DNA from: a virus
Taxonomy: Duplodnaviria > Heunggongvirae > Uroviricota > Caudoviricetes
Reading direction: 5' to 3' (one strand)
IMG/VR virus record: IMGVR_UViG_2713897042_000013
Span: 1-25,270 of that record
Length of the DNA stretch: 25,270 nt
Below are positions 8,100-21,686 of the stretch, piece after piece. Under the pieces are notes generated by a model. The model did not search any database, was not told the DNA's origin, and was given only the letters and a program-made list of their open reading frames with translations. A program made the translations under genes and the position numbers. The stretch's first letter is position 1; the number at the start of each line of letters is the position of its first letter.

Positions 8100-8723
8100 T
8101 TATGCGACCTCGGAAGGAAGTCCAATCATCTTATTCAAATCTTCTACCCGTAAAGCAGGAAGTGCTGTACTTGCTATATCTGCTTCTTTTGGTAGCAACT
8201 CTTTGCTTTCAGGCCAAACTTCAATAAGTCGCTTAACTGTTGTGACTGAGTTCAAAGCAGCCCATACATTTGATTCGATATCCTTTTTCTTGGCTTCAAG
8301 TTTTTGTTGCAATGCGCAGATTTCATCAAACCTTTTTGTTATTTCGTGTTCTGCGCTAAACATGCATTTATCTTTGGTCGGAGTAGGGAGCAATATATCT
8401 TCGCCGTTGCCGTCTTTCCCATATGAATACCAGCCAACCCTTCTGCCAGATACAGTCAGATAAATTGAAGTTGAACGGGCATCGCATGAGTAAAATGAAC
8501 ATCCCAGCTTTTCAAGTTCTTCGCTTATAGCCATTAACTTGGATGATAACTGATCCACTTCCTCAGTTTTCTTTTTACCGCCAAACGCAACAACTCTGGC
8601 GTCAAGTGCAAGCTGGTTCTTTAACTTTGTTACTTCTTCAAGCTCAGTGAAAACCCCAGATTTAATTAAAGCGTTACGAGCGATTTTCTCTTTCATTCTC
8701 GTAGTTAAGCGGATTGATGACAT
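8100..8723 (-). CDS. Hypothetical protein (207 aa) between N and cIII, where lambda has sieB/ral/ea10
   Basis: Start taken at ATG 8723 with GAGGAA upstream. Hydrophilic, no recognised motif. Confidence 0.75.
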   Translation of the reverse strand: MSSIRLTTRMKEKIARNALIKSGVFTELEEVTKLKNQLALDARVVAFGGKKKTEEVDQLSSKLMAISEELEKLGCSFYSCDARSTSIYLTVSGRRVGWYSYGKDGNGEDILLPTPTKDKCMFSAEHEITKRFDEICALQQKLEAKKKDIESNVWAALNSVTTVKRLIEVWPESKELLPKEADIASTALPALRVEDLNKMIGLPSEVA

Positions 8724-8784
8724 ATTAATTCCTCTCAAATAAGTGGTTTGCTGCCTAATTTCATTTTCTGGCGACCAACACAAG

Positions 8785-9057
8785 TCATCTTGCTGTCAGT
8801 TGTTTGGATTTCCGGTAGCCTGCCGCGTAAAGAGCTACATTTGGAAGACAAGTTGAGCCTTCATATTTTCTGGTCAACGTTGTCAGTGTTATTACTTCTG
8901 CTCTCATTGCTGGTTTGCGCTTGCATTGCAAGACCACTCGAGAGGGGGTTGGTCTGTGTAGCTTGTCGGAGCTAATCGCCTCCTGACTTTGCAGGTTTGC
9001 GCGACGAGCTCTACGACGAGAAGCTGAGGTGCCTTTAAATTCTGTTTTTCTGGACAT
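8785..9057 (-). CDS. N: N-like transcription antiterminator (90 aa)
   Basis: Start ATG 9057 with GGGAGGAA upstream. N-terminal arginine-rich motif GTSASRRRARRANLQSQE resembles the phage 21 and P22 N ARMs. Lies downstream of nutL and pL. Confidence 0.8.
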   Translation of the reverse strand: MSRKTEFKGTSASRRRARRANLQSQEAISSDKLHRPTPSRVVLQCKRKPAMRAEVITLTTLTRKYEGSTCLPNVALYAAGYRKSKQLTAR

Positions 9058-9154
9058 AGATTCCTCCCGAATAAACTTTGGTGATGCAATCTCGAAGCTC
9101 CTCCTGAGACGGTTGCTTCGGCATTGCATCCCACAGCTTATGTGGTTGGGTGAT

Positions 9155-9500: not shown

Positions 9501-10430
9501 CTAATCGATTGATTTAATATCCCATTGAGGTCGAGAAACCAGAGTGTATCTGGGCTTGCCCTTACCAACAGTTTTTTTCAGGAACGTGGCTGTTGCAACG
9601 CTTCCTAAGTGCTTGTTTATAATATCTGGGTCATCTACAGCTTTGTCAATGCTAGCGGTTCTGATATCAGTGTTACCTAAAACTATAAATTCACATTGGC
9701 GCTTGTTAGGAAGAGTTCCCAAAAATATAACGTTCTCAATAATTTTTTCCTGCTGAATGTTATCATTGCTGAGATGTTGATATACAGCTTCAAGCTGTTT
9801 TGGCTCTCTAAAAACGATGCTAAAACCTTGGCTTTTAAGTGTAAAAACTGTTTTATTTTCATGCAGATAATGAATGAATGCTCTGATTTTATCTAAGGCC
9901 CGAGAGTCTAAGTTTTCTATAGCATCAGACAATTCTTCATCATCATTATCCAAGCTTGCCTGAAATATTTTTCTGGCCTTATTAATAGCTTTTGCTACTG
10001 GGGTTTCTTCATCGAATTCAAGAGGAGCATCAGGTCTAAACTCTTCAAGTACGAATCCGAAAGAACCACGGGCTGACGCGGTAATCATGAGATGATTATT
10101 TTCTATGTTTGGTATCTTGCCTGATGCAGGAAGTGGGCCATTGAAAGAGGTTGCCAAGTAAGCTATTGCATCATTAAAACAAGATATAGCTTTTGTTCCA
10201 AATACTGCTGAAATGCCATGCGTGCCAACTACTGTTGGGCCTCTAAAAGTTAACACAGCATGCGTAGGTTCATGTTCTCGAACGTCAGCTTGTGAAATTA
10301 ATCGCTCAACTTTCTCCAGACGGTCTTCTAAGCTTTTTCGGCTAATAGAATGACTTGTTGGCATATTTTTTAATAGATTACTTATTTGCTCGCGCTCACT
10401 GAGAGCGAAAACATAATCATTACGATTCAT
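9501..10430 (-). CDS. Uncharacterized protein (309 aa), distal gene of the two-gene rex-locus module
   Basis: ORF from the track. Its ATG overlaps the stop of the upstream ORF (ATGA). No recognised catalytic motif. Confidence 0.85.
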   Translation of the reverse strand: MNRNDYVFALSEREQISNLLKNMPTSHSISRKSLEDRLEKVERLISQADVREHEPTHAVLTFRGPTVVGTHGISAVFGTKAISCFNDAIAYLATSFNGPLPASGKIPNIENNHLMITASARGSFGFVLEEFRPDAPLEFDEETPVAKAINKARKIFQASLDNDDEELSDAIENLDSRALDKIRAFIHYLHENKTVFTLKSQGFSIVFREPKQLEAVYQHLSNDNIQQEKIIENVIFLGTLPNKRQCEFIVLGNTDIRTASIDKAVDDPDIINKHLGSVATATFLKKTVGKGKPRYTLVSRPQWDIKSID

Positions 10431-11005
10431 TGTTTGACCCCCTCAGTAGTAGCCGAATTAAGTATAGTCATTGCCACAACATCAAGTTGTGGGTTTAACG
10501 GGATTTGGATAAATCCCTTCCACGACAGATCGCGTCTATGTGCCCACATACTGTACCAATATACAGTCATTTCAACAAGCTCATGACTTGGTAGATTAAG
10601 TTCTTGGAAGTAGGAATCTACGAAAAACTCCTTCTTAACAAAATCATGATCAAATAGCTCTGGCTTTCTACCGATTACGATTGCATCATTATCGCCATTA
10701 CTGAATTGAAAAAAGGTCACAACATCGACATCATTCGGTGGCCTTTTTTCAATAAGTTCAATATGTTCTGTGAAGCTTCCATCTACCCACTGAAAACCTT
10801 CAACTAGCCCTGCTTGAGTGAGTGAAACACGAAAGTTAAGAAAACCCTTAAGGATTTTAATCCTTGCAGGGCTAAGCGAAAAAGTACTAACAAAGCGTAC
10901 TATATCCATTTTGTATGGGGAACGAGTATGGCTTGTAGGATCAGCCTCGTCTATTGGGGGGATTAACCCCATCTCATTCCATAGAGAGACAGTTGGTATA
11001 CTCAA
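10427..11005 (-). CDS. Uncharacterized protein (192 aa from TTG at 11005, or 181 aa from ATG at 10972), proximal gene of the rex-locus module
   Basis: ORF from the track, immediately downstream of cI on the same strand. Contains GSF-x12-PNDVDVV, weakly resembling a nucleotidyltransferase GS…DxD motif. Confidence 0.8.
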   Translation of the reverse strand: MSIPTVSLWNEMGLIPPIDEADPTSHTRSPYKMDIVRFVSTFSLSPARIKILKGFLNFRVSLTQAGLVEGFQWVDGSFTEHIELIEKRPPNDVDVVTFFQFSNGDNDAIVIGRKPELFDHDFVKKEFFVDSYFQELNLPSHELVEMTVYWYSMWAHRRDLSWKGFIQIPLNPQLDVVAMTILNSATTEGVKQ

Positions 11006-11091: not shown

Positions 11092-11808
<717 letters not shown>

Positions 11809-14531: not shown

Positions 14532-14972
14532 ATGAAAAAACTAACCTTTGAAATTCGATCTCCAGCACATCAGCAAAACGCTATTCACGCAGTACAGCAA
14601 ATTCTTCCAGACCCAACCAAACCAATCGTAGTAACCATTCAGGAACGCAACCGCAGCTTAGACCAAAACCGAAAGCTTTGGGCTTGCCTTGGTGACGTCT
14701 CTCGTCAGGTTGAATGGCATGGTCGCTGGCTGGATGCAGAAAGCTGGAAGTGTGTGTTTACCGCAGCATTAAAGCAGCAGGACGTTGTTCCTAACCTTGC
14801 CGGGAATGGCTTTGTGGTAATAGGCCAGTCAACCAGCAGGATGCGTGTAAGCGAATTTGCGGAGCTATTAGAGCTTATACAGGCATTCGGTACAGAGCGT
14901 GGCGTTAAGTGGTCAGACGAAGCGCGACTGGCTCTGGAGTGGAAAGCGAGATGGGGAGACAGGGCTGCATGA
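14532..14972 (+). CDS. ninB: NinB (Orf family recombination mediator)
   Basis: MKKLTFEIRSPAHQQNAIHAVQQ… matches lambda NinB. Start placed at the ATG (the track's longer version uses an upstream alternative start). Confidence 0.9.
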   Translation: MKKLTFEIRSPAHQQNAIHAVQQILPDPTKPIVVTIQERNRSLDQNRKLWACLGDVSRQVEWHGRWLDAESWKCVFTAALKQQDVVPNLAGNGFVVIGQSTSRMRVSEFAELLELIQAFGTERGVKWSDEARLALEWKARWGDRAA

Positions 14973-15841
14973 TAAATGTCGTTAGTTTCTCCGGTGGCAG
15001 GACGTCAGCATATTTGCTCTGGCTAATGGAGCAAAAGCGACGGGCAGGTAAATACGTGCATTACGTTTTCATGGATACAGGTTGTGAACATCCAATGACA
15101 TATCGGTTTGTCAGGGAAGTTGTGAAGTTCTGGGATATACCGCTCACCGTATTGCAGGTTGATATCAACCCGGAGCTTGGACAGCCAAATGGTTATACGG
15201 TATGGGAACCAAAGGATATTCAGACGCGAATGCCTGTTCTGAAGCCATTTATCGATATGGTAAAGAAATATGGCACTCCATACGTCGGCGGCGCGTTCTG
15301 CACTGACAGATTAAAACTCGTTCCCTTCACCAAATACTGTGATGACCATTTCGGGCGAGGGAATTACACCACGTGGATTGGCATCAGAGCTGATGAACCG
15401 AAGCGGCTAAAGCCAAAGTCTGGAATCAGATATCTTGCTGAACTGTCAGACTTTGAGAAGGAAGATATCCTCGCATGGTGGAAGCAACAACCATTCGATT
15501 TGCAAATACCGGAACATCTCGGTAACTGCATATTCTGCATTAAAAAATCAACGCAAAAAATCGGACTTGCCTGCAAAGATGAGGAGGGATTGCAGCGTGT
15601 TTTTAATGAGGTCATCACGGGATCCCATGTGCGTGACGGACATCGGGAAACGCCAAAGGAGATTATGTACCGAGGAAGAATGTCGCTGGACGGTATCGCG
15701 AAAATGTATTCAGAAAATGATTATCAAGCCCTGTATCAGGACATGGTACGAGCTAAAAGATTCGATACCGGCTCTTGTTCTGAGTCATGCGAAATATTTG
15801 GAGGGCAGCTTGATTTCGACTTCGGGAGGGAAGCTGCATGA
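14969..15841 (+). CDS. ninC: NinC (PAPS-reductase-like family), 290 aa
   Basis: ATG at 14969 overlaps the ninB stop (ATGA). Sequence matches recalled lambda NinC. Confidence 0.9.
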
Positions 15842-19778: not shown

Positions 19779-20154
19779 GCTGGTTATCGCTGCATTCTTC
19801 TTTACTGTCATTGGTTCTTTCATCTGGTCTGCCAACCACTACTACAGCAAATATCAGCACGAAAAGAAACGTGCTGATGAGGCTGTACAAAATGCTGAAT
19901 CTGCAACAGCCATTACCCGTAACGTCCTGCAATCACTGCAACTCGTCAATACAGTTATAGAGGTTAACCAGCATGCAAAACAGCAGATCGCACTGGAGTC
20001 ACAGAGAACCCAGAAAGATATCAAAGTGGCTGTTGCGGATGATGATTGTGCTGCAGGCCTTGTGCCTGCTGCCGCTGCTGAGCGGTTGCGGAAGTACGCG
20101 AACAGTTTACGTGAGCATTCCGGTGGTTCCGTTACCAGCCACCCTGACGGCTGA
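19762..20154 (+). CDS. Rz: Rz-type inner-membrane spanin (130 aa), not lambda Rz
   Basis: N-terminal transmembrane segment (LVIAAFFFTVIGSFIW) then a helical periplasmic domain. Position directly after R. Confidence 0.75.
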   Translation: MKLSYKLVIAAFFFTVIGSFIWSANHYYSKYQHEKKRADEAVQNAESATAITRNVLQSLQLVNTVIEVNQHAKQQIALESQRTQKDIKVAVADDDCAAGLVPAAAAERLRKYANSLREHSGGSVTSHPDG

Positions 20155-20296
20155 AACGCCTTATCCTGACATTCCGGATAATATGACATGGGGTAATAGT
20201 CTTAATTTAAATGTCAGTCTGCTATCGGCACTTGGCCAGTGCAATCGGGATAAGGCTGATATCAGGCAGGCTGAGAAAAAAAGAGCGGGCTTCTAA
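20039..20296 (+). CDS. Rz1: Rz1-type outer-membrane lipoprotein spanin, overlapping and extending beyond Rz
   Basis: +1 frame relative to Rz. Lipobox LLSGC followed by a proline-rich sequence. Start codon uncertain (Met at 20039 or 20042). Confidence 0.6.
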   Translation: MMIVLQALCLLPLLSGCGSTRTVYVSIPVVPLPATLTAETPYPDIPDNMTWGNSLNLNVSLLSALGQCNRDKADIRQAEKKRAGF

Positions 20297-20302
20297 GCCC
20301 GC
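20274..20302 (-). terminator. Intrinsic terminator for the minus-strand cassette; the hairpin also contains the Rz1 stop codon
   Basis: Minus strand: GCGGGC-TTAGAA-GCCCGC followed by TCTTTTTTT. Confidence 0.75.
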
Positions 20303-20323
20303 ATTATGGTGAATATTATGATT

Positions 20324-20884
20324 TTAAAGTACCCACCAGCGGATCGATTCCGTGGGTATGGTTGCAGCCTCGACTTGATGAACAATTCCCAACTCGGAGG
20401 CCCTTCCGGGATGAAGGATGGTTGCCGAAGTGATCAAATCCTTCCAATCAGCAATCTCACTTGGATTTTTCTTTTTTGTTTCAATATCCATGATTTGAAT
20501 AAATCGATTTAGATCGTCATCGAGGCATGAAGCCCATTCTCTCAATCGTAGGTGATCTGCGCTGGGTGCGGCGAACCCCCAATGCAGTGGGTGAAGAAGG
20601 AAGCGAGAAAGTGGGTTGGCAGTTCGCACTTCTCCAGCCATATAGATCACGTTTGCGATTGATTCAACATTACTGAGGTTATGCGTAGTAACCTTTACAC
20701 CAAGTGACTTTAAAAAATTGTAAGCAGTAAAGCCTGAAACTGTATCTCCACCTTTGCTGGAAATATAGAGCTTAATTTCTGTTGCTGGTTGATTAGTATT
20801 TGAAACTGCTTTTAAGCAGACATCCATCAGATTAGTTACAGAGGCAACTGTAACATCTGTCAAAAAATGTACCGTATGGATCAT
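20324..20884 (-). CDS. ClpP-fold serine peptidase-like protein (186 aa)
   Basis: GAGGAG ribosome-binding site. LYISSKGGDTVSGFTAYNFL…SNVESIANV…SRFLLHPLHWG aligns by eye with ClpP (YINSPGG…GQAASMGA…SRVMIHQPLGG), with the catalytic Ser and His positions conserved. Confidence 0.85.
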   Translation of the reverse strand: MIHTVHFLTDVTVASVTNLMDVCLKAVSNTNQPATEIKLYISSKGGDTVSGFTAYNFLKSLGVKVTTHNLSNVESIANVIYMAGEVRTANPLSRFLLHPLHWGFAAPSADHLRLREWASCLDDDLNRFIQIMDIETKKKNPSEIADWKDLITSATILHPGRASELGIVHQVEAATIPTESIRWWVL

Positions 20885-20962
20885 TTTTACTCCTCAATGG
20901 CAGGTCGCTAATGCAACAGGAAATGCAAATAATCGAATGTTATTAGAGCATCAAAGTAGAGC

Positions 20963-21511
20963 CTAGCTCTGTGGCGTGCTTAAGCATTTTGCTTCGTAAT
21001 GTACCCTCATGGAAAACATAGCGAATAACATAATGAGCTTATCGCGTAAGCTTGTAGAGGATCCCGTGAAACTTACAACCCTAGTTTCTGCTCCGTAAAC
21101 CCCAAGCTTAAAATCTCTAATGGGGGTCAAGCTATCAGGGTAACCGTGCTCCATTAGACTTGTTAAGGAGTCAATCTCACTGTTAGTGATGTCAGAGTTG
21201 TTAATTTGATGTGAGCGTTTGTTTCTGAAGTTGTTGAACCTTCGAATAAATTTGTTTAGCTCTGAGCTCATCCCATAGTTCATCGCAAGCTGAGCTTTAA
21301 TGGCAAAATCCATGTTGATATTTTCGCCAAAACCGCTGAAGAAATCCCTGTTACCAGAGGCACAGATAATCCAAGCTTCCAAGATTTGTTCAATCAAAAG
21401 GTGAGTGCGGAGATAGATACCAATGTCATCTTGGGACCGAACTATAGTCATTATTCTATCGGGTTGATGGGATGCTAAAGTCAACTCTTCAAAATGAGTA
21501 AAATCAAACAT
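20963..21511 (-). CDS. Hypothetical protein (182 aa) with a HEPN-like RNxxxH motif
   Basis: AAGGA ribosome-binding site. Motif FRNKRSHQ (R-N-x3-H). Lies upstream of the ClpP-like gene on the same strand. Confidence 0.8.
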   Translation of the reverse strand: MFDFTHFEELTLASHQPDRIMTIVRSQDDIGIYLRTHLLIEQILEAWIICASGNRDFFSGFGENINMDFAIKAQLAMNYGMSSELNKFIRRFNNFRNKRSHQINNSDITNSEIDSLTSLMEHGYPDSLTPIRDFKLGVYGAETRVVSFTGSSTSLRDKLIMLFAMFSMRVHYEAKCLSTPQS

Positions 21512-21686
21512 ATTGATTCCTTGTAGAGGCTATTTTGTTGCTAATATCTTGTAAATTTGAACGTTTACTATCGATTTGTCTAACAAAAAAATCCTGAGGT
21601 TTTTATGGCAAAACCGTAGTGGAATACGCTTCGATTCTGAAAAGGATGCCACATATCGCACGTGAACCAACCAAGAGTATTATGCA

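Follow-up and report, generated by a model that had tools for sequence, protein, structure and literature searches.

A HepS-like HEPN gene and a truncated ClpP-like gene, adjacent but independently distributed, in a lambdoid Escherichia coli prophage

HepS (STM14_3211), from the Gifsy-1 prophage of Salmonella Typhimurium 14028, is an abortive-infection tRNase that needs neither a partner nor an inhibitor (PDB 9OIJ and 9OIK; Sargen et al., Nature 2026; PMC13043305). It is expressed constitutively as a tetramer, which is non-toxic when overexpressed alone. Its N- and C-terminal segments bind a peptide of J, the lambda tail tip, and the resting tetramer opens on binding (PMC13043305). PpClpP1 of Pseudomonas plecoglossicida (PDB 9UXT; Chen et al., PLoS Pathog 2026; PMC12900304) is a ClpP that has no N-terminal axial loops and whose “triad” is Ser-His-Pro, with a dispensable third residue. 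It fails to bind ClpX; its tetradecamer has a wide pore, and by mixing with housekeeping ClpP it produces a more active ClpXP (PMC12900304). Here, we describe relatives of both proteins, which are encoded side by side in a 25,270-nucleotide stretch of viral DNA (IMG/VR record IMGVR_UViG_2713897042_000013, the whole of which is referred to as the window). The first is a standalone HEPN protein of 182 amino acids (aa) that is a distant HepS relative (20963..21511, minus strand). The second is a predicted, ClpP-fold serine peptidase of 186 aa and of the PpClpP1 type, which also lacks the N-terminal axial loops (20324..20884, minus strand).

The genes lie next to each other in one orientation, 78 bp apart, and a sequence-only reading of the window had proposed that they are a dedicated pair, that is, a protease-controlled RNase. 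Such a pairing is not supported: the genes are distributed independently of each other and a junction separates them. The explanation that we regard as probable is that two autonomous prophage cargo genes are stacked head-to-tail in the lysis/packaging hotspot and that they do not constitute a two-component system. A false lead is thereby removed, as the combination of HEPN and ClpP is not conserved as a defence pair. The HepS class of solo prophage HEPN abortive-infection nucleases, described in January 2026, would gain a divergent, enterobacterial branch in the post-lysis slot, which includes gp52 of phage phi80. The analysis also flags a widespread and unstudied cargo gene, a truncated ClpP that is present in approximately 3% of complete E. 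coli genomes and in many Klebsiella prophages, and whose only characterised relative, PpClpP1, mixes with host ClpP. HepS is already on record as an abortive-infection nuclease without a partner, so what the HEPN gene adds is a divergent member of an existing type.

Genetic context, distribution and module junction

The window is the left half of a mosaic, lambdoid E. coli prophage that is integrated beside ybhC. Its genes are arranged in the order integrase, ERF recombinase, N, cI-type repressor, NinG, Q, holin, GH104 lysozyme, Rz/Rz1, the two-gene cassette, HNH endonuclease, TerS and TerL. In lambda, the antisense cargo gene bor is located after Rz/Rz1. The slot of the cassette, between the lysis and packaging genes, is an equivalent cargo-gene (moron) slot, as had been suggested from the gene order. 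The region had also been described as AT-rich and this is correct: the GC content of the cassette is 40.8%, compared to 46.9% for the window, 48.3% for the lysis genes and 54.9% for the interval from HNH to TerL. Both cassette genes are under purifying selection, with ratios of nonsynonymous to synonymous substitution rates (dN/dS) of 0.07–0.15 against homologues in other phages (0.14–0.15 for the HEPN gene and 0.07–0.08 for the ClpP-like gene).

The 1.5-kb cassette region is present at 98.7–100% identity in 15 of 5426 complete E. coli genomes, and no complete E. coli genome spans 80% of the window. One of the strains with an identical cassette is GN06156 (locus L001), in which the genes downstream are those of an HK97-type head, including a prohead protease of its own, and of a Mu-like, contractile tail. 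A megablast search of GenBank phages with the cassette returned no match, and no mention of the RefSeq accessions of the two proteins was found in the literature that was searched.

Among viral loci, the two genes are adjacent in 6 of the 80 that carry the ClpP-like gene and in 6 of the 34 that carry the HEPN gene, and these six do not differ from the window. Of the other loci, 74 have the ClpP-like gene alone and 28 the HEPN gene alone. HEPN homologues at 90, 84, 66, 57 and 53% identity are solo, antisense genes, flanked by the lysis genes on one side and the gene of the small terminase subunit on the other, and there is no ClpP-like gene in their vicinity. Solo HEPN genes occur in loci L002–L012, in phage phi80 (gp52) and in Salmonella phage FSL SP-016. 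Relatives of the ClpP-like gene, from 96% down to 47% identity, are all solo in other phages. The ClpP-like family is found in 148 complete E. coli genomes; 15 of these have the HEPN gene and, in the other 133, the ClpP-like gene is the only one of the two detected. A survey of neighbourhoods had been suggested as a way to reveal conserved pairing, and it revealed the opposite, as the pair is confined to one lineage.

Further support for separate origins came from the boundary between the genes, which is a mosaic junction at 20944..20945. On one side of this junction, window positions 19959–20943, comprising Rz, Rz1, the terminator, the ClpP-like gene and its leader, match locus L024 at 87% identity, and L024 is without a HEPN gene. 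On the other side, positions 20945–21622, comprising the HEPN gene and its leader, match the solo HEPN loci L012 and L009 at 88% and 85% identity, respectively. The match to L024 stops at 20943, and those to L012 and L009 start at 20945.

Each of the two leftward open reading frames (ORFs) has its own ribosome-binding site, as had been read from the sequence. AAGGA (21518–21522) is located 6 nt ahead of the ATG of the 182-aa ORF, and GAGGAG (20890–20895) is 5 nt ahead of that of the 186-aa ORF. The leader of the HEPN gene (21512..21622, minus strand; 111 bp) is conserved, with 88% mean column identity in the alignment, and travels with the HEPN gene; presumably, the gene's own promoter is located here. 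The leader of the ClpP-like module (20885..20943, minus strand; 59 bp) is the upstream edge of the DNA that is common to the solo ClpP-like locus L024. The leftward unit is closed by a strong, intrinsic terminator (20277..20302, minus strand), which had also been recognised earlier. It consists of the stem-loop GCGGGCTTAGAAGCCCGC (20285–20302), with 7 pairs, 6 of them G-C, and a 4-nt loop, followed by TCTTTTTTT. The folding energy of the 61-nt terminator stretch is -14.2 kcal/mol (z = -2.8). The terminator overlaps the 3' end of Rz1 on the plus strand (stop at 20296; last codons …AEKKRAGF and the stop) and, because the stem-loop is built from these last codons, the same DNA encodes the C-terminus of the spanin and terminates the antisense cargo transcript. 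It also lies inside 19959–20943, which accompanies the ClpP-like gene in other phages (L024). As the terminator belongs to the ClpP module and none was found between the HEPN and ClpP-like genes, the two share it and read-through co-transcription is likely, as a consequence of the module junction.

Several observations weigh against the explanation of two autonomous cargo genes, the first of which encodes a HepS-like nuclease. In complete E. coli genomes, the HEPN subfamily always adjoins the ClpP-like gene (15/15), and one phage contig holds both genes, albeit 15 kb apart. A scan with a strict sigma-70 consensus found no promoter upstream of the HEPN or the ClpP-like gene, the leader 21512..21622 included, and PADLOC has no model that matches the 182-aa or the 186-aa protein. 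With regard to HepS, the pairwise identity of the 182-aa protein is low, at 18–20%, and comparison of its 16-member family to the single HepS sequence using hhalign gave a moderate probability of 64% (E 6.7e-5, 52 columns). In addition, the trigger-binding termini of HepS, which is 210 aa in length (S13, D15, S202 and T203), have no counterpart in the 182-aa protein. Because of the 15/15 adjacency in E. coli and the contig with both genes, the two genes may be functionally linked within this E. coli lineage. As a weaker addition to the ClpP function that is proposed below, the truncated ClpP may have been co-opted in this lineage to act with the adjacent HepS-like nuclease.

The first two of these observations, together with the adjacency, co-orientation, 78-bp spacer and single shared terminator with none between the genes, also speak for a dedicated system, in which the ClpP-fold peptidase would control the HEPN RNase by degrading either it or an inhibitor, to make a new toxin-antitoxin-like or abortive-infection system. 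However, gene adjacency is limited to one lineage with 98.7–100% identity, the HEPN relatives (90–53% identity) and the ClpP-like relatives (96–47%) are all solo, and the recombination junction between the modules is clean. Moreover, HepS needs no partner and is not toxic when overexpressed alone. A dedicated system is, as a result, very unlikely. No ClpP or HEPN-plus-protease system was found in two recent E. coli defence-discovery papers. In the case of two autonomous cargo genes, recombination in this lineage would have set the HEPN module directly upstream of the ClpP module, and both genes would now use the terminator of the latter and probably be co-transcribed, without depending on one another.

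The HEPN protein and its relation to HepS

The 182-aa protein contains the segment FRNKRSHQ at residues 95–102, in which R96-N-K-R-S-H101 is encoded at 21209–21226. The assignment of the protein to HEPN, which had been made from this RNxxxH segment, is correct, as seen from the match to HepS and from the residues that are invariant in the family. The protein has a four-helix HEPN fold, with an Rx4-6H motif (R96-NKRS-H101) after the third helix. The AlphaFold model has a predicted local distance difference test score (pLDDT) of 88 and its top four Foldseek matches in the PDB are all HepS chains; HEPN toxins are also among the structural matches. A word-index search yielded a family of 16 clusters (Citrobacter, Enterobacter and metagenomes), across which R96, N97, R99 and H101 are invariant. 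In PHROGs, the protein falls in phrog_5483, a family with no annotated function that includes phi80 gp52. The phi80 protein is a more distant relative, with 34% identity, and its gene is antisense between rha and cos. The gene of Salmonella phage FSL SP-016 encodes another of the more distant relatives.

In a PDB-wide sequence search, HepS (9oij) was the sole match to the 182-aa protein (phmmer E 0.053); with the family profile as the query, the E was 0.0034. The alignment places NNFRNKRSHQI over NNIRNKYAHKI of HepS, in which the motif spans R100 to H105. For these comparisons, the 210-aa HepS sequence was assembled from overlapping, partial database entries and checked against the residue numbers in PMC13043305. 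The family profile was also run exhaustively with HMMER against 1.84 billion representatives, which gave 191 proteins, nearly all of which are 160–210 aa in length. The sequences of 148 of these 191 were retrieved; the Rx4-6H motif is present in 143 of the 148, and 112 of the 148 are significantly similar to HepS by BLASTP (25–37% identity). A deeper profile, built with these sequences included, matched HepS with an E of 3.4e-16, and the match was still 6.7e-8 once all HepS-similar sequences had been removed. A tblastn search of the phage collection with a HepS fragment returned no match, and a word-index search with the fragment found partial HepS entries only.

These profile comparisons place the 182-aa protein, as a divergent member, among the standalone HEPN proteins of the HepS superfamily. 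Like HepS, it is a small, single-domain HEPN protein of less than 250 aa, with the Rx4H motif in nearly the same position (R96/H101 here and R100/H105 in HepS). It is also prophage-encoded, from an accessory-gene slot and with no conserved partner gene. In contrast to HepS, it belongs to a separate sequence family (PHROG 5483) and is 182 rather than 210 aa in length, and the tetramer, tRNA cleavage and defence are known for HepS only. As the trigger-binding termini are not conserved, the trigger of the 182-aa protein probably differs from that of HepS, and is probably not the lambda J tail tip. This makes the HEPN branch useful for asking how such sensors diversify.

The 182-aa protein could instead be a non-catalytic, HEPN-fold regulator of the MtlR/YggD type. 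Here, the invariance of R96, N97 and H101 in the family and the retention of Rx4-6H in 143 of 148 distant relatives argue for a nuclease, and the gene is antisense phage cargo and is not part of a sugar operon. A regulator of this kind is therefore highly improbable.

Other HEPN systems were also compared. The protein shares the HEPN fold and the Rx4-6H motif with Abi_2 (AbiD/AbiF-like, PF07751) and with HEPN-MNT pairs. Pfam matches had been anticipated for both cassette proteins; that for the peptidase was obtained (CLP_protease, S14, above cutoff), whereas for the 182-aa protein the only match was to Abi_2, over the catalytic helices and below threshold (E 0.042; 14.6 bits against a gathering cutoff of 25.6). 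Unlike HEPN-MNT pairs, no MNT nucleotidyltransferase or other cognate antitoxin gene is adjacent in any locus, and no same-strand neighbour is conserved in any HEPN locus. The general logic of a lysogen-expressed HEPN sentinel is common to Tha, a tail-activated, anti-phage HEPN protein of Staphylococcus aureus prophages (PMC11087260). Tha is from a different host clade, however, and no sequence or structural match to it was recorded here.

By analogy to HepS, the lysogen would produce the 182-aa protein in the form of an inactive oligomer, to be bound and switched on by a protein of an incoming phage. The activated HEPN protein would then cut tRNA or another RNA, so that the infected cell aborts the infection.

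The truncated ClpP paralogue

The 186-aa protein had been aligned by eye to the ClpP core with the Ser and His positions preserved, and this was confirmed. Ser75 (20660–20662) and His98 (20591–20593) align with the nucleophile and general base of ClpP. The Pfam CLP_protease match scored 47.7 bits, against a cutoff of 20.2 (E 2.1e-12). The AlphaFold2 model has a pLDDT of 90, and Foldseek matched it to more than 1000 ClpP chains at template modelling (TM) scores of 0.72–0.86, with a TM of 0.86 to 9uxt. By sequence, the best match by far is again PDB 9uxt_A, that is, PpClpP1, with 36% identity over the full length (E 1.6e-32), compared to 17–22% identity for canonical ClpPs. The SxGG oxyanion motif, S75 and H98 are invariant across 32 family sequences, and S75/H98 align with S73/H96 of PpClpP1.

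The catalytic Asp of the triad is absent. From the alignment, the third position is Ala154, opposite Pro151 of PpClpP1 and Asp171 of E. coli ClpP, and it is A, T or S in the family. The axial loops are absent as well, since the protein begins at the first core strand: residue 13 aligns with residue 36 of Thermus thermophilus ClpP and residue 3 aligns with residue 4 of the truncated PpClpP1. The 186-aa protein, therefore, has the same N-terminal truncation as PpClpP1, a conserved Ser and His, and a third position that is not Asp. It differs from PpClpP1 in having Ala154 in place of Pro151 and in being encoded by a phage cargo gene, whereas PpClpP1 was studied as a chromosomal paralogue. The tetradecamer and mixed rings are known for PpClpP1 only, to which the 186-aa protein is likened by sequence and model.

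The best PHROG and NCBIfam matches of the 186-aa protein are annotated as ClpP-type head-maturation (prohead) proteases, which would make it the head-maturation protease of the phage. The 186-aa protein matches phrog_94, “head maturation protease”, at 1.8e-25 and NF045542, “head maturation protease, ClpP-related”, at 1.4e-13, and the homologue in phage phiv205-1 is annotated in the same way. It also shares with these proteases a phage origin, the ClpP fold and the Ser-His pair. However, these matches reflect resemblance at the level of the family, the NF045542 score is 51.2 bits against a curated cutoff of 120, and the protein is far closer to the cellular-type PpClpP1. In contrast to prohead proteases, the gene is antisense to the late operon, AT-rich and outside the head module, and there is no scaffold or capsid fusion. 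The GN06156 prophage, in which the cassette is identical, has its own HK97-family prohead protease beside the portal and capsid genes, and other homologues of the ClpP-like gene are located behind mnt in immI or within tail modules. A role in head maturation has next to no likelihood.

The ClpP-like family comprises 58 clusters (Klebsiella, Citrobacter, Pectobacterium, Pantoea, Serratia, Proteus and Chromobacterium) and its genes occur in three slots, in all of which they are single, antisense genes. The first is after Rz/Rz1, as in Klebsiella prophages, E. coli ECCTRSRTH03 and the 96%-identical locus L024. The second is the immI region of P22-like phages, where the start of the gene overlaps the stop of an mnt-like, Arc-family gene. 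The third is found in Mu-like tails, with the tape-measure genes on one side and the baseplate genes on the other. The mnt-like gene of the P22-like phages is the only recurring same-strand neighbour; the rest are variable, small ORFs, some of which are probably spurious. In P22, mnt is expressed in the lysogen. Lambda bor and P22 sieA are likewise lysogen-expressed cargo genes, and they have comparable positions, bor being antisense after Rz/Rz1 and sieA being downstream of mnt. Unlike the cassette proteins, Bor and SieA are envelope proteins and not enzymes, and there is no sequence relationship.

What the truncated ClpP does in these slots can be approached from PpClpP1. The gene moves between phages alone and encodes a Ser-His pair; by analogy, its product would be unable to dock ClpX itself, and it would probably form wide-pore rings, or mixed rings with host ClpP, that alter proteolysis in the lysogen. 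We tentatively propose a new, single-gene prophage function, possible rather than probable, in which a lysogen-expressed subunit enters or replaces the rings of host ClpP and reprograms proteolysis to exclude phages or to stabilise lysogeny. Insertion into host ClpP rings would explain why the gene recurs as autonomous, antisense cargo in three hotspots, in phages of Enterobacteria and of the Pseudomonas type. A literature search on prophage ClpP and superinfection exclusion found nothing relevant.

Alternatively, the cargo could serve the phage, either by tuning host ClpXP/ClpAP for lysogeny or induction, through repressor fragments or replication proteins, or by countering a host defence. 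The change in ClpXP output that is brought about by mixed tetradecamers of PpClpP1 and housekeeping ClpP is in keeping with such a role, as is the fact that, in P22-like phages, the gene is linked to the mnt/arc/ant switch region. Against it, both of the remaining slots (after Rz1 and within tail modules) are of a kind that cargo or defence genes typically occupy. We hold this alternative to be unlikely; it is compatible with the explanation of two autonomous cargo genes, which leaves the role of the ClpP-like gene open.

Three further observations concern ClpP-like loci. Relatives of PpClpP1 (50% identity) are encoded antisense in IMG/VR viral contigs L134–L136, at approximately 5995–6546 in L134. 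The sizes of the neighbouring ORFs in L134 fit tape-measure, DNA-circularisation and sheath genes of a Mu-like tail, an assignment made from ORF size only and for L134 only. Because these relatives are antisense in viral contigs, the solved PpClpP1 may itself be derived from a prophage cargo gene. In an enterobacterial viral contig (L085), the ClpP-like gene is preceded, approximately 540 bp upstream and on its own strand, by a 231-aa ORF (4766–5461) whose N-terminal segment is, by eye, rich in Cys and whose C-terminus resembles DUF4145/HEPN. As the sister loci L084, L086 and L087 lack this ORF, it looks like a variable neighbour rather than a conserved partner. Finally, in the P22-like prophage remnant of E. 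coli SF-088 (L139), a gene annotated as a YafO-family, type II toxin (2466–2789) is convergent with the mnt/ClpP-like unit, and accessory genes cluster there in the immI/sieA slot.

Other accessory genes in the window and in GN06156

Lambda carries rexAB in the slot between N and cI. In the window, the interval between N (8788–9129) and the cI-type repressor (11095–11805) is occupied by two co-oriented genes on the minus strand (9504–11005). The product of one is a DUF6932 protein of 192 aa (Pfam 2e-26), with a match to the PADLOC candidate PDC-M63A (2.2e-10). The product of the other is 309 aa in length and matches no family of Pfam, NCBIfam or PADLOC. The pair is a candidate for a lysogen-expressed, two-gene defence system.

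Just downstream of N, in the early-left operon, is a gene for a 227-aa Nmad5 protein (nucleotide modification associated domain 5, Pfam 3e-70; 8103–8783, minus strand), and a PAPS-reductase-like gene is found at 14909–15841 on the plus strand. Together, these may indicate functions in DNA or nucleotide modification.

Collinearity of the whole window with the GN06156 prophage was considered and rejected, as it holds around the cassette only. The GN06156 prophage has an antisense, TIR-domain gene between Q and holin (17660–18475 of L001), an interval in which the window has no gene. The Q/holin interval is another cargo hotspot of variable content.

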